From Armatimonadota bacterium (lineage in GTDB: Bacteria; Armatimonadota; UBA5829; DTLH01), in the NCBI GenBank assembly GCA_038207085.1, contig JBBRAE010000002.1:128001-192000 (forward strand): a stretch of 64,000 nucleotides of DNA, given 5' to 3'. Positions within the stretch are counted from its first letter, which is position 1. Each line of letters opens with the position of its first letter. A model generated the notes under the pieces. It searched no databases. It was not told the origin of the DNA and was given only the letters and a program-made list of their open reading frames with translations. The position numbers were made by a program, and so were the translations under genes. Below are positions 2,234-27,954 of the stretch, piece by piece.

Positions 2234-2962
2234 TTGGTAAATATCAAACCTTGTGTTGAGGAAGAGATCCAAGCGATCTACGTTGAGGCGCTGCATGCTA
2301 TGCGCGACAGAAATGTGCCGTTTGTGCTCGGAGGCGCGTTTGCTGTGTGGTTCTACACCGGAGTCTGGCGACACACCCATGACATAGATGTCTTTGCCGA
2401 GCCAGAGAGCGTTCCGGCCGCCGCCGAAGCCCTGAAATCGGCGGGTTTTGAAGACCTCGGAGAGCAAGCCCCCGGCGACCGCGAATGGATCTATCACGCC
2501 GTCAAAGGCGATATCATCGTCGATGTCATCTTCAAATTCGCAAACCGAATCACGTCCGTGAGCGCGGACTGGATCAAACGCTCAAGGCCCGGCGAGCTGC
2601 TGGGAGAAGACGTCAGGTTCCTGCCCCCCGAAGAGCTTGTCTGGTCCAAAATCTTCACGATGAACAAGCACCGGTGTGACTGGCCGGACATAATGAGGAT
2701 CTTCCGGGCAAACTGCGCGAATTTTGACTGGGATCACCTCATAAAGATGCTCGGGGACCACTGGCTGCTCCTTGGGGGACTCGTTCACGTGTTCGACTGG
2801 CAGCACCCCGACGACCACGCGTGCATTCCGCAGGGCGTCAGGGACGAGCTTTTGAAGAGGAGACAGGATCACCAGCCGCAGCAGGGCGTCGGAAACAGGG
2901 AAAAGTTGCTCGACCCGTGGATCCACTCCAGGCCGGAGGACAAATGTTACTGGGAGCAATGA
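2234..2962 (+). CDS. Nucleotidyltransferase (pol-beta superfamily, uncharacterised)
   Basis: GGAFA...RHTHDID and VDVIF catalytic signature; GGAGG RBS before TTG start. Confidence 0.8.
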   Translation: MVNIKPCVEEEIQAIYVEALHAMRDRNVPFVLGGAFAVWFYTGVWRHTHDIDVFAEPESVPAAAEALKSAGFEDLGEQAPGDREWIYHAVKGDIIVDVIFKFANRITSVSADWIKRSRPGELLGEDVRFLPPEELVWSKIFTMNKHRCDWPDIMRIFRANCANFDWDHLIKMLGDHWLLLGGLVHVFDWQHPDDHACIPQGVRDELLKRRQDHQPQQGVGNREKLLDPWIHSRPEDKCYWEQ

Positions 2963-3723
2963 ACAACCCCATGATCGACGTGATCTCTGAGATCGAGTCG
3001 ATCGCGGACAAAGGCTTTGACTTCATCGATCTTACGATGGAGCCACAGGAAGCGTATTCAGCGACCTTTCCTACCCGTGAGGTGAAGGCCGCCCTGAAGC
3101 GCACCGGGCTTGAGGTCATCGGGCACACCGCGTGGTATCTGCAGCTTGCAAGTCCGTTTCCTGAGATAAGGGAAACCGTCGCCCGGGAGCTCGAGCGGTG
3201 CATGCGGGTCTTTCACGAGCTCGGCGCGACGCTTATGAACATCCATCCTCACACCAATGCGCCCCTTCACGACGAGGAATGGATGCGCAGCCAGAATATC
3301 GCGACTCTTTCCCGGATCGCGACCATCGGCTCGCGCCTTGGGATCAAGATCATAATCGAAAACACCCCGCATTTCAGTCGCGTGATGGAACTGCGGCCGA
3401 TGCTTGAGGCGATTCCTGAGATGGGGTTTCACCTCGATGTGGGGCATGCGAACCTCGACAGCCCTTACAACCGCACAGAGGAACTCGTTTCAAACTTTGG
3501 CGACAGGCTGTACCACGTCCACGTCTCAGACAACCGGGGCGGGCGCGACGACCTTCACCTGCCGCTTGGGGTGGGGAACATCAATTGGGCCTGGGTCGTG
3601 AAGATACTGAAGAACGCGGGCTACGACGCCGGGATTACCATCGAAGTCTTTGGTGACGACCCGGATTATTTGACTATCAGCCGCGACAAGCTTCGCAAAC
3701 TCTGGGATACGATTGAGGCATAA
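2944..3723 (+). CDS. Xylose isomerase-like/AP endonuclease 2 TIM-barrel metalloenzyme
   Basis: IEN, HLDVGHAN, HVHVSDN, DLHLPLG and TIE metal-ligand motifs; ATG 2944 follows GGAGG and overlaps upstream gene. Confidence 0.85.
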   Translation: MLLGAMNNPMIDVISEIESIADKGFDFIDLTMEPQEAYSATFPTREVKAALKRTGLEVIGHTAWYLQLASPFPEIRETVARELERCMRVFHELGATLMNIHPHTNAPLHDEEWMRSQNIATLSRIATIGSRLGIKIIIENTPHFSRVMELRPMLEAIPEMGFHLDVGHANLDSPYNRTEELVSNFGDRLYHVHVSDNRGGRDDLHLPLGVGNINWAWVVKILKNAGYDAGITIEVFGDDPDYLTISRDKLRKLWDTIEA

Positions 3724-3768
3724 GTTTCGGGCACGGGGGCTGGCAAAACCAGCCCCTCGTCCAAATCC

Positions 3769-4641
3769 CTAATTTTCAACGGCGGCGGATTCCTCCACAA
3801 GCTCCACTGCGAAGTCCTCAAACCTGCGGGGTTCGTGCTTTAGTGCGTCTCGCAGAGGCGCGTCGGGGTTGTCCGGGACGCTGAAGCCGTGCTCCTGGAA
3901 GAACGTGAACATGATCTTGTAGTCCCCGATCATCCAGTCCGGCAACATGCTCTTTGCCTGCTCGGCCCACGCGTCGAGGTCGTCGCCTATGTAGCGCACG
4001 TCCCGCCCGAGGTACTGGGAGTAGACTTCGGCTACCCTTGGGCCAGAGAGGTTTTCCGGCCCCTGAAGCTCGTATATCCGCCCGTGGTGTCCGCTCTCAA
4101 GAAGCGAGGTCACCGCCGCGTCGGCGATATCTCGCACGTCCACGCGATTTATCCCCCTCTTGCCGATCGGGTAGGGATATACTCCCTGCTCGGTGATCAC
4201 GTCTTTGACCCACAGGTCGTTTTGGTAGAAGTTGGTCGGGCGAAGGATTGTCCACTCAAGGCCGGAGTTCATTATGGCCTGCTCTATCGGGATTTTGCTT
4301 GCAAAGTGTGGGATGTGCTCGGACCCCGGAGGCATGCCGACCGACATATAGACGATTTTTTGCACCTCTGAGTCCTGCGCCGCCCGAACGCCCTGAAGCC
4401 CAAGCTCGGCCTCCTGAGGCCCGATTGGAACCAGGAGAAACAGCGCGTCTATGTCTTGAAACGCTGCCGGGAGCGTTTCGGGCTTGGCAAGATCGCCGAC
4501 CGCCGCCTGCGCGCCTTCGGGGACTTCGTGCGCCTTTTGTTCCGAACGAGTGAGCACCCGCACGTCGGCGTTCCGGGCGAGAAGGTCGGCTACAACCTGA
4601 CTTCCGACGGTCCCCGTGCCGCCGATCACAAGTATTTTCAT
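3769..4641 (-). CDS. NmrA-like NAD(P)-binding atypical SDR
   Basis: N-terminal ILVIGGTGTVG Rossmann motif; WTILRP and VDVRDIA motifs. Confidence 0.85.
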   Translation of the reverse strand: MKILVIGGTGTVGSQVVADLLARNADVRVLTRSEQKAHEVPEGAQAAVGDLAKPETLPAAFQDIDALFLLVPIGPQEAELGLQGVRAAQDSEVQKIVYMSVGMPPGSEHIPHFASKIPIEQAIMNSGLEWTILRPTNFYQNDLWVKDVITEQGVYPYPIGKRGINRVDVRDIADAAVTSLLESGHHGRIYELQGPENLSGPRVAEVYSQYLGRDVRYIGDDLDAWAEQAKSMLPDWMIGDYKIMFTFFQEHGFSVPDNPDAPLRDALKHEPRRFEDFAVELVEESAAVEN

Positions 4642-4717
4642 GGCTCTACCCCCAGTGGATGAGTTTGATGGTCTTTGTATCAGTATCGCCGTTTCGGGGG
4701 GAGATCAAACTAAGAAG

Positions 4718-4750
4718 TCCCCTCTCCCCTTGTGGGAGAGGGTGAGGGGG
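4718..4750. repeat. REP-like palindrome CCCTCTCCC-TTGT-GGGAGAGGG
   Basis: ccctctccccttgtgggagagggtgagggg in an intergenic position; widespread bacterial palindrome family. Confidence 0.6.
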
Positions 4751-4778
4751 AATACCTGAAAGTCAGCAATAGACAAAT

Positions 4779-4807
4779 GCGTCCGGGGATGTTGTGTCCC
4801 CGGACGC
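4779..4807 (-). terminator. Hairpin downstream of the 4817-8263 gene
   Basis: gcgtccgggga...tccccggacgc stem just past the stop; only a short T-run follows. Confidence 0.55.
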
Positions 4808-4816
4808 GGTTTATTC

Positions 4817-7800
4817 TTACGGTTTTTCAAGCGTGATCGCCATAACGCGCACTTTGGCGTTTTGCGGCAGGACGATCGATGAGATCTGCCGGGTCGCATC
4901 AAGGGGTATCGCGTAGCGGAACAGGTAGCAGTTCGCTCCCCGTTCGTCGCCCGTTGCAATGTGGCGCTGCAGGGTTACGAGCGCGATTTCCTCGCCGTTT
5001 GCCGGTTCGCTCTTCCATGAGCTCATCTTGACCTTTGCAGGCTCGACCGATGAAGGGTAGCCGATGCCAAAACTCGCGTCCTGATCGGGCTCAGTCGCTG
5101 CGCCAAGAATGTGGACTACAGAATACTTGCCCTTGGGGACGTTTATCGTCTGACCGGCGCACGTGACGGCGTTTTTGTCGCCCGCCGCTTTGTGGCCGAA
5201 GCGGAAGCTGATCTTTCGATTGGCGTCCTTGGTCCAATTGTACCCACAGGGGTAGAGGTCGTTTGGTTTGCCGACGCAGATGTCCGGCGGCATAAACTCA
5301 GCCGGGAAGCTTGCGCCTGTGCCGTCAAAGTTGCCGCTTTCGCGGTTGCGGTCCGGGCTTGAGGCGACAGTGTCGAACGTGGTCGAGAGGTCGGCCATAG
5401 AGAGCTTGCCGTTCTGCACGGTCACTTCCACAGTGAACAGGTCGCCCCCGCGGGTGATGTCCAGGGTCGATGCCCAGCGGTCGCGCTCCGCGAGGTCCCA
5501 TGCGAGGATATAGCGGCCGTCGTAGGCGGGCGCGGTCAGCTTGGCGGCGACAATCGTCGGCTCGTTTGGCCTGATCGGCGTCTTCAGAGCGGTCTTTGCG
5601 CCGTCCCAGACGGCTTCTGTGCCGTCGAGATAATACCAGTGGTAGCCGATGCTGTGGACGCCTGGAACCCAGAGCTCGGGGCTGTTGTTGCGCACGGCAA
5701 GCTTCACATCGATCATCTTGCCAGCGTCGATCGCCTCCGGCACGTCGCATGCGACAAAGTGCGCTCCGAGGTCCGAGTCAAATATGTCGAGCGCCCGCTC
5801 GTAGAGGCCGCTTGCTCTGGTCGAGGTCGGAATGCTCGTCTCGCCGTCGACCATAGTGAGCGCCAGGCGGTAGTCGACGCCAGCTTTGAGGTTCGAGAGC
5901 GGAAGCGGCTTGCCTGTTGGATCGTTAAAGTTGACGGTGAGCTCAAGGTCGGCGATCTGTCCGGGAGCGGTGTCACGGGCGATCACGGTGCGCCAAGGCG
6001 CGGTTGCGACCTCTTTACCGGCGCACAGCAGCTTTGCGATCACGGAGGTGTTGGTCTTCCAAGGCGATGTGCCGTCGTTTCGGACTTTGAGGCGATAAGT
6101 GTAGGAAGCGCCGCTTTTGACCATCACAGGCCCGTCAACCGAGGTGACTCTGGCCTGACACTGGGCACTTTGACCGATCTTGATCGGCACGGAAAGCCCA
6201 TCGTCGCCAAGCGCACTGAACCACTTGTCGTCGGCCATGCGCACCATCTCAAAGCGGATCTCATAGTCACCTTCGGGCAGGTCTTCGGCGTTTTCCTTGA
6301 CGGCTACGACCCCGATTGCGATCTCAGCGGACTGTCCCGGCAGGATGTCGGACTGCAGAGGTCGCTTGACCGCCGCTTCGCCGATCGGTTTGCCGTCTTT
6401 GTACCACCTGTACGAAAGTGCGAACCCCTCCGCGGCGCGCCACGTGCGGATGCCGTCGTTTTGCACGGTCATGTCGACCGAATAGACGGTCTCCGGCAGG
6501 ATCGCGCGCGGCAGGTTGTGGCGCATAAACTTGGCGTCGTAGTCGCGGGGGCCGCGGAACTTGAGCGCCTGCATTGCGGTCGCGTCAATATAAGTGAAAC
6601 CGTATTGGCGGCTTCCGCATATCTCGCTTCCCTCGCGGAACTGGTTCCAGCCGTCGACTATCGCCCAGTTAGGGCGTTTGACGAGCGTTTTGCTCCAGTC
6701 GGCGCGGTAGGTGTCACCGCCTTCTCGCGAACGGATGGGGGTGACGCTCTGCGGGACGGCGCAGTCGTCGTAACCGGGGCCGACCGCCGCGATTCGGATC
6801 TTTGCAGTGTCGTCGTAGGTAAAATCAAGCCCCGCGCCGTAGCGGCAGAAGCCGTCGAGGCCGGGGGCTTTGTCATTGAAGTCGCGCGCGCCAAGCCACA
6901 TGATGTTTGCGTCAAAGTCGCGTGCGAAGCGCTCGTTTACGTAGGATATAAAGCTTGAGTCAAGGTCGGAAAACGGCCTTGCGGAGTATAGCTGGACTAT
7001 ATACGATGGCCGCCCGGAGCGTTCGTCGGCCATCTGCACCTGCGCGCGGTATTCCTCTGGGACGCGCTCGAAAAAGTCCCGGATCATCCCGTAGAGCGCT
7101 TCCTTGGTGGGCAGTTCGCACAGGTTGGCTGGGCCGCCGATAGCTACCGGGATGGATGTGGTGTCGAGATAGAGCCCGACCAGCGGAAAAGGCTTCTTGG
7201 CGGCTTCAAGCTCGCGCATCGCCTCGACCATTACGTCGAGCCCCTTGGCCGAGTAGTTTGTGCGGCTTGCGGGGTCGCCCCAGTATACGGGCAGGATGAT
7301 ATCTATCCCCGCGCGCCTGATGTCGGAGAGCTCGTCCTTGTGCCACTGCACTCGGTCGAAGCTGAACCACGGGCCTGCTCCCCTGATCGGCTGATCGGTG
7401 AGCGCAAGCCGTCCGTCAGACTCACGCACCCGGGCAAAAGGCGCCGATTTCCTCGGGTCGCCCTGATACCAGTAGAAGTAGTAAGTAAGCGCCATCTTCT
7501 GGAACTGGTGTTTGGGTTTGGCGAGCGCTTCGATTGCGAGCGGGATGTCGAAGCTCGTGTTCTTGTTATACTCTTTCAGGCGCACCTGTCCGTCCATAAG
7601 CGGCATCCGGGTGATGTACTTGCTTGAGACGATCTTATCAAGCGAAAGCGTCGCCGCGCCGAATACTGGGGCGGTGAAGACGATATCCACCCATTTGCTT
7701 GCGTCGTGGACGTCGGCTTCGGCCTTAACGTTCGGTGAGAGGCTGACGAACTTGTTTGAGTCGCCTTTCTGCCTGACCAGCACGTTGAAGCTCATCATCG

Positions 7801-22676: not shown

Positions 22677-25337
22677 CTAACTGCTAAGAGCTTTCTTTCT
22701 CTCCTCAAGCTTTGCCTTCTTGTCCTCAAGCTCGGCGGCGATTCGCCGCTCTTTGTCGATGACCTCGGCGGGCGCTTTGGAGGTGAACTGCTCATTGGAG
22801 AGCTTACCCAAACACCTCGCCAAGTCCTTCTCGATTGTTTTTAGCTCCGACTCGATCCTGGCGACTTCTTTTTCGATATCTACCAAGCCCGCGACCGGCA
22901 GATACACGTCAAACCCCGGCCCGTGGCTTGCCAGATACTGGCTCTTCTCGGTGTCGGGGATGTTCTCTTTTGTCACCTCAAGATTCTCGACCCGGGCAAG
23001 CGACCGAAGTCCCACCGCGTTTGCCTGGAACAGCTCGACCATCTCCGTGACGATCACGGCGTCGACCTTTTTGCCAGGAGTCGCGCCGACCTCAGAGCGA
23101 AGGTTTCGCACCGTGCGGATCGCCTCCATTACCGAGTTCATCTCGGCCTCTGCCGCGTCGCTGATCATCGACTCGTCGGTCTCGGGGAAAGGCGCGACCA
23201 TGATGCTCTCGCCCTGGTGGGGAAGCGCCTGCCAGATCTCTTCGGTGATGAAGGGCATGATCGGGTGCAGGAGCCTCATCGAGGTCTCAAGCACGTTCCA
23301 TAGCACCCACTGAACCGTTGCCCGCTCTGATTCATCCCTGAGCCGCGGCTTGGCAAGCTCCACATACCAGTCCGCGAACTCGCTCCAAAGGAACTCGTAG
23401 AGCGAACGCGCCGCGTCGTCCATATCGTAGTTGCCAAAGCCGTCGTTAACGGTTTTTATGACTCTGTTGAGGCGCGAGAGAATCCACCGGTCTTCGAGCT
23501 TCAGTTCATCGAGTTCGGGCTTTCCGGCCCCCAACCCCTGACCCCCAGCCCCTTCTTCCAGGTTCATCATCACGAATCGGCTCATGTTCCAGATTTTGTT
23601 GCCGAAGTTGCGGGTGTTCTCCACGCGCGAGTCCGAGAAACGCATATCCTGGCCCATCCCCGCCTGCTGGATAAGCGCGTAGCGGAGCGCGTCTGAACCG
23701 AAACGCTCGATCAGGTCGAGCGGGTCGACTCCCGTGCCAAGGGACTTGGACATCCGGCGACCCTCTTCGTTTAGCACCGTGGCGTAGATGTAAACGTCGG
23801 GGTAGGGCACTTCGCCCATAAACTCAAGGCCCTGGAAGATCATCCTCGCGACCCAGAGATAGATGATGTCGCGCGCGGTGATCAGCACGTTTGTGGGGTA
23901 GAACGCCTCAAGCTCGGGGGTCTTTGTGGGCCACCCCAGCGTTGCAAACGGCCAAAGCGCCGAGCTGAACCAGGTGTCGAGCACGTCGGGGTCCTGCTCC
24001 ATGTTCTTCGATCCGCACTTCGTGCACGCTTCGACAGCAGACTTCGCAGCGACAAACTCCCCGCAGTCCGCGCACTTCCAGACCGGGATCCTGTGGCCCC
24101 ACCAAAGCTGTCGGGAGATGCACCAGTCCTTGATGTTCTCCATCCAATCGAGGTAGATTCGGCTGTAGCGATCAGGGACGAACTTCACGCGCCCGTCCTT
24201 CACCGCGTCGATCGCGGGCTGGGCGAGCTCCTTCATCTTTACAAACCACTGCTCGGACAATAGCGGCTCGATCGTCGTATCACATCGCGAGCAGGTGCCG
24301 ACTGAGTGGGTGTAATCATCCACTTTGACCAAGAGCCCCAGCTCTTCAAGCTCCTTTACGACGGCTTTTCGCGCCTCAAAGCGGTCCATACCGGCGAACT
24401 TGCCCGCTTCCTCGGTCATAACGCCGTCGGGTCCGATCACGACGATCTGCGCCAGGTTGTGCCTGATCCCTATCTCAAAGTCGTTGGGGTCATGCGCTGG
24501 GGTTACCTTGACCGCGCCTGAGCCGAACTCCGGGTCTACGTGTGCGTCGTCGACGATGGGGATCGGCCTCTCCATAATCGGGAGCATGATGTCTTTGCCG
24601 ACCATGCCCATATAGCGCTGGTCCTCGGGGCTTACGGCGACTGCGGTGTCGCCGAGCATCGTCTCGGGTCGAGTCGTCGCGACCTCGACAAACCCCGAGC
24701 CGTCGGCGAGCGGGTATTTGATGAACCAGAGGTGGCTGTGCTGCTCTTCGTACTCGACCTCAAGGTCAGATATCCCCGTGTGACAGCGCGGGCACCAGTT
24801 GACGACTCGCGCGCCGCGATAGATCACTCCCTTGTTGAACATCTGGACGAACGCCTCAACCACCGCGTCGGCGTAGCCCGCGTCCATCGTGAAGCGTTCG
24901 CGCTCCCAGTCAAATGAGCATCCCAGGCGCTTCAGCTGACGTATGATCGTCCCGCCGTAGTGCTCCTTCCACTCCCAGACCTTTTCCAGAAACTTCTCGC
25001 GCCCGAGGTCGAATCGAGTGAGCCCATCGGCTGCGATCTGCTGCTCGACCTTGTTCTGGGTCGCGATTCCCGCGTGGTCGGTGCCGGGGAGGATGAGCAC
25101 ATCGAACCCCTTCATACGCTTCCATCGCCCAAGCACGTCGTGGATCGTGTAGCAGAGCGCATGCCCCATATGAAGCGACCCGGTGACGTTGGGCGGCGGG
25201 ATCGTGATGCAGTACCGCGGCTTGCCAAGCTCGGCCTCGGCGTGAAAATACTTCTGCTCAAGCCAGAAACTATACCATTTTTCCTCTACCTGGAAGGGGT
25301 CATACACCTTCGGCAGTTTTTCAAGTTCTGTTGACAA
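22677..25337 (-). CDS. valS: Valine--tRNA ligase
   Basis: PPPNVTGSLHMGHA (HIGH), DWCISRQLWWGH, RMSKS (KMSKS), C-terminal coiled coil. Confidence 0.98.
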   Translation of the reverse strand: MSTELEKLPKVYDPFQVEEKWYSFWLEQKYFHAEAELGKPRYCITIPPPNVTGSLHMGHALCYTIHDVLGRWKRMKGFDVLILPGTDHAGIATQNKVEQQIAADGLTRFDLGREKFLEKVWEWKEHYGGTIIRQLKRLGCSFDWERERFTMDAGYADAVVEAFVQMFNKGVIYRGARVVNWCPRCHTGISDLEVEYEEQHSHLWFIKYPLADGSGFVEVATTRPETMLGDTAVAVSPEDQRYMGMVGKDIMLPIMERPIPIVDDAHVDPEFGSGAVKVTPAHDPNDFEIGIRHNLAQIVVIGPDGVMTEEAGKFAGMDRFEARKAVVKELEELGLLVKVDDYTHSVGTCSRCDTTIEPLLSEQWFVKMKELAQPAIDAVKDGRVKFVPDRYSRIYLDWMENIKDWCISRQLWWGHRIPVWKCADCGEFVAAKSAVEACTKCGSKNMEQDPDVLDTWFSSALWPFATLGWPTKTPELEAFYPTNVLITARDIIYLWVARMIFQGLEFMGEVPYPDVYIYATVLNEEGRRMSKSLGTGVDPLDLIERFGSDALRYALIQQAGMGQDMRFSDSRVENTRNFGNKIWNMSRFVMMNLEEGAGGQGLGAGKPELDELKLEDRWILSRLNRVIKTVNDGFGNYDMDDAARSLYEFLWSEFADWYVELAKPRLRDESERATVQWVLWNVLETSMRLLHPIMPFITEEIWQALPHQGESIMVAPFPETDESMISDAAEAEMNSVMEAIRTVRNLRSEVGATPGKKVDAVIVTEMVELFQANAVGLRSLARVENLEVTKENIPDTEKSQYLASHGPGFDVYLPVAGLVDIEKEVARIESELKTIEKDLARCLGKLSNEQFTSKAPAEVIDKERRIAAELEDKKAKLEERKKALSS

Positions 25338-25425
25338 TTATATCCTCCGTTGGAGCTGAGAGCTTTCGGCTTTCAGCGATCAGTTATGTCAAATTTAGAA
25401 TATCAACCCTCTTGTGATGCTTCGG

Positions 25426-25968
25426 CTAGTCTTGGTCTACTTCATCGCGGCCAGCACGTGCGATTCCAATCAAAGTCGCACCTGCGATAACACTCAAAAG
25501 CACAGACAGCAGCTTCCAAGGCAGCACCCACACTGTTATCGAGTTCACCGGCATGCGGGAGAATCCCCCAGCAATCGTGTAGTTGCCCCATTTCCGGTAT
25601 TCTTTTCTGCCCCACGGGATCGTGGTGGTTTCTCCCGGAGCCAGGTCGATCATATTCTCGGGTGTGAACATTTCTCCTATTTCCTCCGCGTAGGCCCTGC
25701 CAAGATAGGCCTGCCTCATTCCTGAGTAGAACCCACTCTGGAACCTGGTAATGTAGCGTCCGAAATTTCTGAGCTCAACGATAAACGCCAACTCGGCGCC
25801 GGGGTCCACGTAATTGCGGCTGCAAACCAACCGAGCGCACACGCTTCCATAACGCGACTGCTTCCACTGACCTGCCACGCTGGATTTCGGCGGACCCGCA
25901 ATCGTCAGGAACAGTCCAATAAGCAGTAACACGACTAGCAGTGCCTGCACAAGATGTTGCCTAACCAT
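25426..25968 (-). CDS. Hypothetical membrane protein (N- and C-terminal hydrophobic helices around an Ig-like segment)
   Basis: ATG 25968 after GGGGG RBS, just downstream of the T-box terminator; two hydrophobic segments. Confidence 0.6.
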   Translation of the reverse strand: MVRQHLVQALLVVLLLIGLFLTIAGPPKSSVAGQWKQSRYGSVCARLVCSRNYVDPGAELAFIVELRNFGRYITRFQSGFYSGMRQAYLGRAYAEEIGEMFTPENMIDLAPGETTTIPWGRKEYRKWGNYTIAGGFSRMPVNSITVWVLPWKLLSVLLSVIAGATLIGIARAGRDEVDQD

Positions 25969-25987
25969 AGTTGAACCCCCTATATAC

Positions 25988-26320
25988 AAAAAGCCCCACT
26001 CGTCCCTGTGATCAACAAGGACGAGAGGGGCCTCTCGTGGTACCACCTTGGTTCCCGATGCTTTTCGCACCGGCTCAAATTAGGGCTGTAACGGGCCAAC
26101 CCGGCGAATCCTACCCTGCTAACCGCTAACCTGCATTATTCACGAGAAGCGTGAATAATGCTCTCTTAGCAAGAGCTTTATTCGCTTCACGAATAAAGTG
26201 GGCTAACAGCTCAAACCCGCGGCTCCGGGGCGACTTTCGAGCGATGCCCTGTCGGGAGATTTCCAGCTTCCTCTCCTTCTCTGGGACCGGCTATTCGCCT
26301 ACTCCTCCCCATCAACGCCT
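25988..26320 (-). ncRNA. T-box riboswitch, Val specifier GUC, with transcription terminator
   Basis: Stem I with GA, AGUA, AGAGA and GCUG motifs; specifier GTC at 26234-26232; CCGTTA stem IIA/B; AAGGTGGTACCACG antiterminator; terminator hairpin with T-run at 26031-25988. Confidence 0.9.
26130..26202 (-). mobile_element. 73-bp double-palindrome MITE, copy 1 (inside T-box stem II)
   Basis: Imperfect CCYRCWTTATTC termini; TTAG direct repeat on both sides; homologous to 26851-26923 and 30652-30711. Confidence 0.8.
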
Positions 26321-26528
26321 ATTTTATGTTATCAAATTCTTCGCGAGATATTCCCGCATCCCGCAGGATACGATAGAGTAGCCCGTCTTCTATGTCACTC
26401 CCATGCGGATTGGGAATAGCTATCTTGTGGGTTCCGCGCATCATAAATGGATGCCTGCTACCAGGTTTCGGCCCTACGTATCCAAGCAGTTTGAGGCGTC
26501 GTATGAACTCTCGGCGACTGATAGGCAA
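26319..26528 (-). CDS. hicA: HicA-family mRNA interferase toxin
   Basis: ISRREFIRRLKLLGY...GSRHPFM...IPNPHGSDI...ILRDAGISREEF; start uncertain by a few codons. Confidence 0.9.
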   Translation of the reverse strand: MPISRREFIRRLKLLGYVGPKPGSRHPFMMRGTHKIAIPNPHGSDIEDGLLYRILRDAGISREEFDNIK

Positions 26529-26529
26529 T

Positions 26530-26778
26530 CTATGCGGCCTCAGTTTGAGCCTTCTCGTTTAGGTCGAGACCATCTATGACGGGTATCTCGTGTCCGAGCC
26601 TGACCCCAAGTAGAAGCCAATCCTCAATCACTTCTCGCAAAGTCTCTCGACACTGTTCAAGGGTATCCCCATCAGCCCAAGCACCCTGAAGAGCAGGAAC
26701 GTGACCGTAGAACCGGCCATCTTCCATAATCTCGTAGTGAGCTTGTTTCATAGCAGCCTGAACGTAATCGGTAAACAT
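26530..26778 (-). CDS. hicB: HicB-family antitoxin (short, UPF0150-type)
   Basis: FYGHVPALQGAWADGDTLEQCRETLREVIEDW...IP; GGAGG RBS. Confidence 0.9.
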   Translation of the reverse strand: MFTDYVQAAMKQAHYEIMEDGRFYGHVPALQGAWADGDTLEQCRETLREVIEDWLLLGVRLGHEIPVIDGLDLNEKAQTEAA

Positions 26779-26802
26779 ATTGGCCTCCGCGCAACTCACA
26801 CC

Positions 26803-26831
26803 ATTTTACCCCGATATCCCCCGCTTGTAAA
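26803..26831 (-). promoter_or_regulatory. Sigma70 promoter upstream of hicB
   Basis: TTTACA-N17-TAAAAT. Confidence 0.65.
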
Positions 26832-26850
26832 TGGCCCGTACATTGCTTAG

Positions 26851-26923
26851 CCCGCTTTATTCGTGAAGCGAATAAAGCTTTCGCTAACAGAGCATTATTC
26901 ACGCTACTCGTGAATAATGCGGG
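26851..26923 (+). mobile_element. 73-bp double-palindrome MITE, copy 2
   Basis: TTAG direct repeats at 26847-26850 and 26924-26927; inverted relative to copy 1. Confidence 0.8.
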
Positions 26924-26994
26924 TTAGGGCGACAAGCGATATTCTGCTTGCCGCCCCGCTGTTCTCCAGTCTAATCCCTTGGTGCGTCTGAATG

Positions 26995-27954
26995 TTATGC
27001 GGATATCCTCAGATCGAGTTCCACGTCCTCAAGACAACACGCCACGAGCTCTTCCATGGTCGTCGTTCCTACGCAGATGCAGGTGTCGCCTGCGCCGTAG
27101 AATACCTTGACCCCTCCGTTGTGGCGGTTGGGGACCGCTCCGCAGGAGAAGACGACGTTTCCGATGTCGCCGATGCGCTCGTAATACTCACGGGGCGCAA
27201 GCACCGGCACGGCGGAGCGGCCGATTACCTTGGACGGGTCCTCAAGATCGAGGAGCACGACGCCCAGGCGATAAACGGGACCGCCGGAGGTGCATTTTAC
27301 ACCGTGATAGATCTCAAGCCAACCCTGAGGGGTCTCGATGGGAGGGGCGCTCGCGCCGATCCGCTCGGAGTCCCAGAACCCGCCGCGGATGGTCATCACG
27401 CAGCGAGAATCACCCCAGTGCTTGAGGTCGTTTGAGTAAGAAATCCAGATGTTGCCCAGGCCGCCGGCGAGCGGCCGGTCAAGGCGAGCAAATCTGCCGT
27501 TGATCTTTCTTGGGAAAAGCGCCCCGTCCTTGTTCTCCGGCTCGGAGATAAGGCCGTACCGCTTGAACTTCTTGAAGTCCTTGGTGCTTGCCAGCGCAAG
27601 GCATGCGCCAAAGCAGGAGTAGGCCGTATACATGATGTAATAGGTCCCCTCGCAATAGCTGATGCGGGGGTCCTCGATACCACGCTGCTCGTAGCTCTTG
27701 AACGGCTCCTCTTCAGACGGCTGCATCGCAGGAAGCGGGTCCACTACGAAATGGAACCCGTCTTTGCTGCGGGCGAGGGCGAACACGGAGCGACCCTTCA
27801 GGTCCTCCACTCTAAGCAGCAACAGGTAATCTTCTTCGAACATCACGGCGCCGGCGTTGAACACCGAATTACACCGAAAGGGAATGTCCTCCACGGTGAT
27901 CATGGGGTTCCCTTCCCATCGATGTATAACGTCTCGTCCTGAAATCCTCGGCAT
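26995..27954 (-). CDS. GH130 beta-mannoside phosphorylase/glycosidase
   Basis: VFNAGA, GIEDPRI, NKDGALFP, LEIYHG, NVVFSCG, YGAGD motifs. Confidence 0.92.
   Translation of the reverse strand: MPRISGRDVIHRWEGNPMITVEDIPFRCNSVFNAGAVMFEEDYLLLLRVEDLKGRSVFALARSKDGFHFVVDPLPAMQPSEEEPFKSYEQRGIEDPRISYCEGTYYIMYTAYSCFGACLALASTKDFKKFKRYGLISEPENKDGALFPRKINGRFARLDRPLAGGLGNIWISYSNDLKHWGDSRCVMTIRGGFWDSERIGASAPPIETPQGWLEIYHGVKCTSGGPVYRLGVVLLDLEDPSKVIGRSAVPVLAPREYYERIGDIGNVVFSCGAVPNRHNGGVKVFYGAGDTCICVGTTTMEELVACCLEDVELDLRISA

Follow-up and report, generated by a model that had tools for sequence, protein, structure and literature searches.

A hicBA toxin–antitoxin pair between the promoter and the tRNA-Val T-box riboswitch of valS in an Armatimonadota bacterium

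Leaders of the T-box class, known as transcription attenuators from Bacillus subtilis tyrS and glyQS, are usually regarded as the 5' ends of transcripts, and toxin–antitoxin (TA) modules are usually regarded as operons that regulate themselves. What is the reason, then, for a HicBA-type TA pair to stand directly in front of the T-box of an essential aminoacyl-tRNA synthetase gene, and whose promoter do the two have at their disposal? The question is raised by a locus on contig JBBRAE010000002.1 of an Armatimonadota bacterium, of which a stretch of 64,000 nt (the window) was analysed. The locus was read on the minus strand, from position 27200 to 22400, with open reading frame (ORF), Pfam, Rfam and NCBIfam profiles and with a promoter and terminator scan. 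A preliminary description of this DNA had named, in this order, a promoter, hicB, hicA, a T-box, an ORF and the valine–tRNA ligase gene valS, and each of these elements was found where it had been placed. The reading that we consider probable is that a hicBA cassette without a promoter of its own entered the gap between valS promoter and valine T-box, just before stem I, and that the promoter is now shared with valS.

Whose promoter precedes hicB

The unit begins with a sigma-70-type promoter, TTTACA-N17-TAAAAT (26803..26831, minus strand, 10 of 12 matches in the promoter scan). On the same strand follow a short 5' leader (26779..26802, delimited from the sequence and from an alignment, A2, with the G003, L088 and G002 leaders), hicB (26530..26778), hicA (26319..26528), the T-box (26014..26324), an ORF of 179 codons (orf179, 25426..25965) and valS (22677..25337). 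The last was identified by PF00133, PF08264 and PF10458 and by the NCBIfam equivalog NF004349 (1206 bits against a cut-off of 704). It had been claimed that hicA passes into the T-box with neither spacer nor terminator, and this holds: the first paired base of stem I directly follows the TAG stop codon of hicA (26321-26319), and the minus-strand scan returned no terminator-like site between the promoter and the T-box terminator.

To whom the promoter belongs can be judged from relatives. In what follows, the genome of the window itself is G000, G001–G005 belong to the same family, and L-numbers stand for extracted loci and contigs, of which L087, L088, L093 and L099 come from metagenomes. Within the same class, valS was found in 39 of 41 genomes and 30 loci were returned; the T-box scan covered 24 of the relatives' valS loci, three of them extended upstream, and left out L058-L062. 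A T-box precedes valS in 16 of these 24. Fourteen cassette-free loci, all from the same taxonomic order, have a complete T-box 5' end, and 12 of these show the pattern TTTAC[AT]-N17-TAnnAT a single time in the available upstream sequence, where it ends 4–32 nt before the Rfam start of the T-box; of the other two, G009 has a TTGACC variant and G037 is without the pattern. The distance from the promoter end to the T-box is 478 nt in the window, 609 nt in G004 and 1599 nt in L088, hicBA genes lie in the gap, and each of the three loci has a single match to the pattern in up to 2.2 kb. In alignment A2 the -35 element, the -10 element and the GGTGAAAT-type leader align in G001, G003, L088, the window, G004 and the three G002 copies.

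HicB relatives were searched in the family genomes, in genome contigs and in metagenome contigs, and their loci were scanned for T-boxes, with the distant HicB-like loci L077-L079 and L102-L105 left out. Among 16 other HicB-relative loci that were inspected, 15 are without the valS-type promoter; only L093 has it, a 1.2-kb contig that ends inside hicA, before any T-box could appear. Because the promoter is missing from these 15 loci and present at cassette-free valS T-boxes, the comparison indicates that the promoter before hicB is the ancestral valS/T-box promoter and not part of the cassette. The earlier proposal of a TA module placed between promoter and riboswitch of valS thus gains support from cassette-free relatives.

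The pair itself is unmistakable at the family level. The HicB antitoxin has 82 aa and matches PF21748 (UPF0150) over residues 4-66 (104 bits against a cut-off of 27.3, E 3.9e-30); its match to PF15919, at 19 bits, stays under the cut-off of 27, and it resembles PDB entry 2DSY from Thermus thermophilus (E 1.2e-12). The hicA toxin gene is intact, opens with a TTG codon 1 nt past the hicB stop and encodes 69 aa, which match PF07927 over profile positions 2-58 of 58 (33.8 bits, cut-off 27) and PDB entry 1WHZ, also from T. thermophilus (E 2.4e-6). His26 of HicA is invariant across 8 aligned homologues, and this conserved histidine is presumably catalytic. Canonical HicB proteins carry a C-terminal DNA-binding domain through which they repress their own promoter. 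In the domain search, the window protein showed no ribbon–helix–helix or helix–turn–helix domain, its sole domain being that at 4-66, and the other two HicB proteins of the L088 cassettes (66 and 90 aa) matched no DNA-binding family either. Since HicB is without an evident DNA-binding domain, the short pair is probably incapable of self-repression and dependent on the host promoter.

The third codon positions of hicB and hicA have G+C contents of 0.48 and 0.47, against 0.79 in valS and 0.74 in the upstream GH130 gene, and this low value compared with valS fits acquired DNA. The 24 nt between the -10 element and the hicB start include a GGAGG Shine-Dalgarno sequence 6 nt before the ATG; this leader may consist of a GGTG-type remnant and a degenerate, internally deleted 5' fragment of stem I that supplies the GGAGG site. 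The genome is rich in TA genes, with 14 HicA matches of which 13 exceed the Pfam cut-off; two of the 14 have in-frame stops and one is apparently split on C56. No flanking direct repeats of at least 14 nt were found at 11 other hicA loci of this genome, which means that duplication is not a general mark of hicBA insertion.

The downstream riboswitch appears complete. It matches the full RF00230 model (positions 1-219 of 219) with 94.3 bits and E 2.3e-19; the score barely exceeds the gathering score of 93 because of a 98-nt insert in stem II, a feature that the preliminary description had missed. Stem I extends over about 26318-26222, and the specifier codon GUC lies at 26234-26232 with a purine after it, in the context GAA-A-GUC-G (26238-26231). 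The T-box bulge UGGU (26045-26042) matches the A73-CCA end of tRNA-Val(GAC), and a tRNA-Val(GAC) with A73 and CCA is encoded in the genome, so that the valine assignment proposed earlier from specifier and bulge is borne out. Antiterminator pairs are visible in the Rfam alignment of this T-box, and a terminator hairpin with a U run lies at about 26030-25988, as judged by sequence and folding. A minimum free energy fold of the whole leader did not reproduce the canonical T-box fold, and folding was used for the terminator and the inserted repeat only. Among relatives (alignment A4), stem I, the specifier, stem IIA/B, the T-box sequence and the terminator are conserved, with GUC kept in G001, G003, G004 and L087. 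We predict from these features that the window T-box acts by tRNA-dependent antitermination. Two further T-boxes occur in the same genome, at L031 C1:15496-15766 and L032 C1:37397-37649: one has the specifier GUC (Val) and precedes an acetolactate-synthase-like ORF, the other has CUC (Leu) and precedes a dihydroxy-acid-dehydratase-like ORF, both ORFs being named from reading their translations. Each carries a close-by promoter of its own, of the TTGACA/TTGACG type.

Recurrent cassettes in the valS leader

If a cassette entered this leader once, is the window a single case? A synteny comparison of hicBA, T-box and synthetase genes, which the preliminary description had suggested, was productive: besides the window, hicBA genes lie upstream of a valine T-box in G004, in G002 and in L087/L088, and HicB identity among these lineages is 58-77%. 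All cassettes at the site stand in the orientation of valS, and one to three are present per relative. The hicA stop is followed by stem I after 0 nt in the window, 7 nt in G004 and 9 nt in L087/L088.

The most elaborate case is L088. Behind a single TTTACA-17-TAGAAT promoter (530-558) it has three HicB/HicA pairs of unrelated sequence, at 660-1153, 1219-1643 and 1697-2153, and all six proteins pass a Pfam cut-off. Neither a second promoter-like site nor anything resembling a terminator was returned by a scan of positions 400-2368. A 39-nt 5' fragment of stem I is present in four copies, 87-100% identical, at 563, 1160, 1641 and 2158; they stand after the leader and after each cassette, and the last runs on as the complete T-box. 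Right after the first copy lies a 27-nt piece (605-631) that is 81% identical to the hicB/hicA junction of cassette 1 at 1926-1952, a remnant which implies that cassettes have also decayed there. How specific is the stem I fragment to this site? A phylum-wide search of 401 genomes with one mismatch gave matches about as often as a reversed-pattern control, and a stricter search, limited to five family genomes, gave a single genuine copy in each of G001-G004 and none in G005; by this stricter search, duplications of the fragment are seen only in L087/L088.

In G002 it is the promoter and leader that are duplicated, as 34-nt and 29-nt duplicates, giving three promoter copies. A copy with a 3-nt shorter spacer stands before cassette 1 and a full copy before cassette 2; a third, also full, lies 3 nt before the T-box, past two ORFs of which one encodes an M48-peptidase homologue. 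The assembly breaks inside stem II. G004, from another genus of the family, has the hicB of cassette 1 followed by a HicB of the L088 cassette-3 type, the latter joined out of frame to the last 22 or so codons of its hicA. From these remains it follows that both toxin genes were lost and the antitoxins kept. The scan of the G004 region returned no promoter-like site beyond the single upstream promoter. No cassette was found at the valS T-box site in G001 or G003, and the G005 genome yielded neither a T-box nor a stem I motif. An IS66-family transposase, in two ORF pieces, lies at 2024-2927 on the upstream side of valS in G005 (L065, C37).

These comparisons point to the valS leader as a recurrent landing and retention site of hicBA in this bacterial family. 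By what means might the cassettes have arrived? In G002 the duplications comprise 29-34 nt of promoter and leader, in L088 39 nt of stem I, and such variable length speaks against a transposase with a fixed target duplication. Single-crossover (Campbell-type) integration of circles that carry the leader, or unequal crossing-over at short homology, would fit better; a site-specific recombinase acting in trans is a further conceivable agent.

A possible link outside the family is offered by L099, a distant metagenome contig of low G+C content on which (2501-5219) a HicB 50% identical to that of the window is encoded, and where hicB and hicA end at a weak T-box-like leader. The leader fits the 3' two-thirds of the Rfam model well, with a score of 20.3-20.4 bits against the gathering score of 93 (E 0.01-0.014), and in the ORF downstream the N-terminal half of IleS continues in frame into a histidine-phosphatase domain. 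If this case is real, the connection of hicBA with T-boxes reaches beyond one bacterial family.

In L088 (5-457) a gene for the Lon protease, which degrades HicB in Escherichia coli, immediately precedes the valS promoter region, and in G003 (L064, 4359-5693) a Lon gene lies one gene further upstream.

A shared transcript and its alternatives

If the cassette landed in the handful of nucleotides that separate the valS promoter from stem I, how would the resulting unit work? The valS promoter would transcribe hicB and hicA, and because neither spacer nor terminator intervenes, transcription would run straight into the T-box to give one RNA. When tRNA-Val is charged, the T-box terminator would stop this RNA about 0.8 kb from its start, leaving a transcript of hicBA and leader, and the riboswitch terminator would double as the terminator of the TA operon. 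When tRNA-Val(GAC) is uncharged, it would pair with GUC and UGGU, the antiterminator would form, and orf179 and valS would be transcribed. One may even imagine that a ribosome, on reaching the stop codon of hicA, covers the 5' strand of stem I. The idea is purely conjectural and applies to the window genome in particular, because the spacing of 0 nt there compares with 7-9 nt elsewhere. As to why the cassette persists, a selfish explanation is the most economical: a cassette at this place would be hard to silence, because a mutation of the promoter would also cost valS expression.

Several points weigh against this account. Read-through from the upstream promoter into the T-box is proposed on the strength of the comparison of loci, and an effect of the arrangement on valS regulation is conjectured in turn. 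That HicA is toxic and is neutralised by HicB is a prediction from their families. Upstream of hicB, the window retains at most a short and degenerate stem I remnant, and no direct repeats were found to flank the G004 cassettes. The cassette-bearing genomes are all kin, from one family and its metagenome relatives, which means that the recurrence does not consist of independent events. The third promoter copy of G002 shows that at least one lineage has a dedicated T-box promoter. The window itself has two candidate elements in hicA: TGaTAACAT, an extended -10-like element in its 3' end, 7 nt before stem I, to which the preliminary description had already drawn attention, and GTGACA-17-TATCGT inside the gene (26398..26370, 9 of 12 matches).

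These last observations raise the question of whether the T-box and valS are driven from within hicA, by a promoter near its 3' end. In that case valS would in practice be regulated apart from hicBA, and the upstream promoter would serve mainly the TA pair. G004 has a comparable element, TGcTTAAAT, 9 nt before stem I, and the G002 copy suggests that a proximal promoter can be favoured. However, TGaTAACAT is without a -35 partner, and neither it nor the 26398..26370 site is conserved in the orthologous hicA of L087/L088; the latter site also falls within the noise of the scan, which found 4 sites against 1.5 +/- 1.3 in shuffles of the 1.9 kb. In L088 and G004 the scans reported above revealed nothing promoter-like between the single upstream promoter and the T-box. 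We therefore consider an internal promoter unlikely as the main source of valS transcripts, and even if it exists, it would leave transcripts from upstream free to enter the T-box. A quite different objection would be that the cassette brought a valS-like promoter of its own and that the T-box lost its original one, or that the whole arrangement is an assembly chimera. A sequence as close to the general sigma-70 consensus as TTTACA-N17-TAAAAT could indeed arise anywhere. Yet the promoter is absent from all but one of the 16 other HicB-relative loci, the two other T-boxes of the same genome use a different promoter type, and the leader behind the -10 element aligns in A2 with the valS leaders of relatives. 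The same architecture recurs in the assemblies G000, G004 and G002 and in the contigs L087, L088 and L093, which argues against a chimera. Taken together, we regard this explanation as very improbable.

Could the linkage be adaptive and not selfish, coupling TA dosage or the RNase activity of HicA to the status of valine or tRNA-Val, for example through the longer transcript expected on starvation or through HicA cutting the leader? The linkage has been retained in the genus of the window, in those of G004 and G002 and in the metagenome lineage L087/L088, with the HicB identities given above, and L099 shows hicBA ending at the start of a T-box-like leader, there before an ileS fragment. On the other hand, the loss of both toxin genes with retention of the antitoxins in G004 is what one expects of a decaying TA module, the distance from the hicA stop to stem I varies between lineages, G001 and G003 are without a cassette at the site, and the L099 leader scores far below the gathering threshold. 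An adaptive role of either kind thus appears distinctly improbable to us, and we favour the selfish insertion of a promoterless cassette behind the valS promoter.

It is tempting to go a step further and to regard the valS T-box leader as a platform for the capture and expression of promoterless hicBA pairs with short HicB, resembling an integron without an integron integrase, a suggestion that we hold only tentatively and think unlikely in this strong form. Recombination at the promoter, the leader or the 5' strand of stem I would bring cassettes in, reorder them and remove them, riboswitch-derived repeats of 29-39 nt would be left between them, and the promoter and the riboswitch terminator would act as the cassette promoter (Pc) and the terminator of the array. 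Were this platform view true, L099 would mean that the hicBA family targets T-box leaders more widely.

The rest of the unit and its relation to known systems

The insert in the apical part of stem II, 98 nt relative to the Rfam model, contains a repeat related to miniature inverted-repeat transposable elements (MITEs) at 26126..26206. A second copy lies upstream of the promoter at 26847..26927, inverted relative to the first (neither was assigned a strand), and the two form the arms of an 81-nt inverted repeat that are 93% complementary. In the window's own genome the repeat gave 191 blastn matches, of which 123 span 75 nt or more. The element forms two internal hairpins, its ends pair as a closing stem, and it is without coding capacity; copies are often flanked by TTAG/CTAG and sometimes occur in tandem (e.g. 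G000 C2:75509-75594 and C16:54733-54891). The stem II copy folds on its own, with -42.1 kcal/mol. By these properties we class the element of about 80 nt as a dispersed repeat of the MITE or repetitive extragenic palindrome (REP) kind, with predicted mobility. It is absent from this position in G001, G003, G004 and L087 (alignment A4), whose stem II loops are occupied by different variable sequences, tandem heptamers among them; elsewhere in the family, a few diverged copies were found in G003 and G005, and none in G001, G002 or G004. Since the T-box is conserved outside the insert, it probably tolerates this addition. The heptamers are of the GTTAGCN type in L087 (about 1300-1340) and of the GTGAGTT type in G004 (L066, about 1400-1340, minus strand), and GTTAGCN-type heptamers also occur beside MITE copies, for instance in the flanks of G000 C45:8743.

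Between the T-box terminator and valS lies orf179. Its N- and C-terminal stretches are hydrophobic and its third-position G+C content is 0.63; it matched no Pfam or NCBIfam family and has no homologue in 40 relatives. This slot differs by lineage, being empty in G001, occupied by four genes over 2.9 kb in G003, and filled by unrelated ORFs in G004 and L087. In G002 (L063, C108) an HTH_17 and PIN pair, a VapBC-like TA system, occupies the slot (2501-1792, minus strand), and by its position it is predicted to be under T-box control. Upstream of the whole unit, the window encodes GH130, an oxidoreductase and GH94.

How does this arrangement compare with what is known? With other T-box leaders of aminoacyl-tRNA synthetase genes (RF00230) the window shares the specifier stem I, stem IIA/B, stem III, the UGGN bulge, competing antiterminator and terminator, and the control of valS. 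It differs in having two protein genes, about 480 nt, between promoter and stem I, where relatives have 4-32 nt, as well as a mobile-type repeat of about 80 nt in the stem II loop and a lineage-specific ORF before valS. With type II HicAB systems it shares an adjacent small pair, a HicA fold with its conserved histidine and the UPF0150 domain of HicB. Unlike canonical HicAB, the order is hicB then hicA, HicB is without a DNA-binding domain, the pair is without its own promoter, and it is embedded in the leader of an essential gene.

Genomic islands are known to integrate into tRNA and tmRNA genes and to restore the gene with a duplicated segment. The cassettes resemble them in inserting at a structured RNA with a target duplication, here of 29-39 nt, that keeps the downstream element intact; they differ in their size of about 0.5 kb, in encoding no integrase and in a duplication length that varies by lineage. 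The closest parallel is provided by integrons, in which promoterless cassettes, often TA pairs in chromosomal integrons, are expressed from Pc (PMC11014356, PMC3948777). As in such arrays, TA cassettes without promoters follow one another in the same orientation behind one promoter, with short repeats between them, and their order differs between genomes (L088 as compared with G004). The inter-cassette repeats, unlike those of integrons, duplicate the host leader or the 5' strand of stem I in direct orientation, and the array ends in the riboswitch of an essential gene. The integron integrase profile TIGR02249 found no protein above its cut-off of 265 bits in any of six family genomes (best score 94 bits), and no attC site was evident in the inter-cassette repeats, which were not formally searched for attC-like hairpins.

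The T-box, the HicAB pair and the MITE-like repeat are thus of known kinds, and it is their arrangement that appears to be new. None of the titles and abstracts searched described a TA module in a T-box leader or hicBA arrays split by riboswitch fragments, and within the part of the literature covered by our search no publication brought HicA, HicB and the T-box together. What emerges is a TA pair without a recognisable operator-binding domain that appears to take both its promoter and its terminator from the riboswitch unit of an essential gene. For genome annotation the locus carries a warning, namely that the start of a riboswitch-regulated unit can lie far ahead of the riboswitch itself, and that mobile repeats are tolerated in riboswitch loops. 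If the co-transcription proposed here is true, the locus would be a natural instance of a riboswitch that functions behind a long translated 5' extension. It would also show how selfish TA genes resist silencing and deletion by sharing an essential promoter, and it may hint at chromosomal cassette arrays of a new kind.

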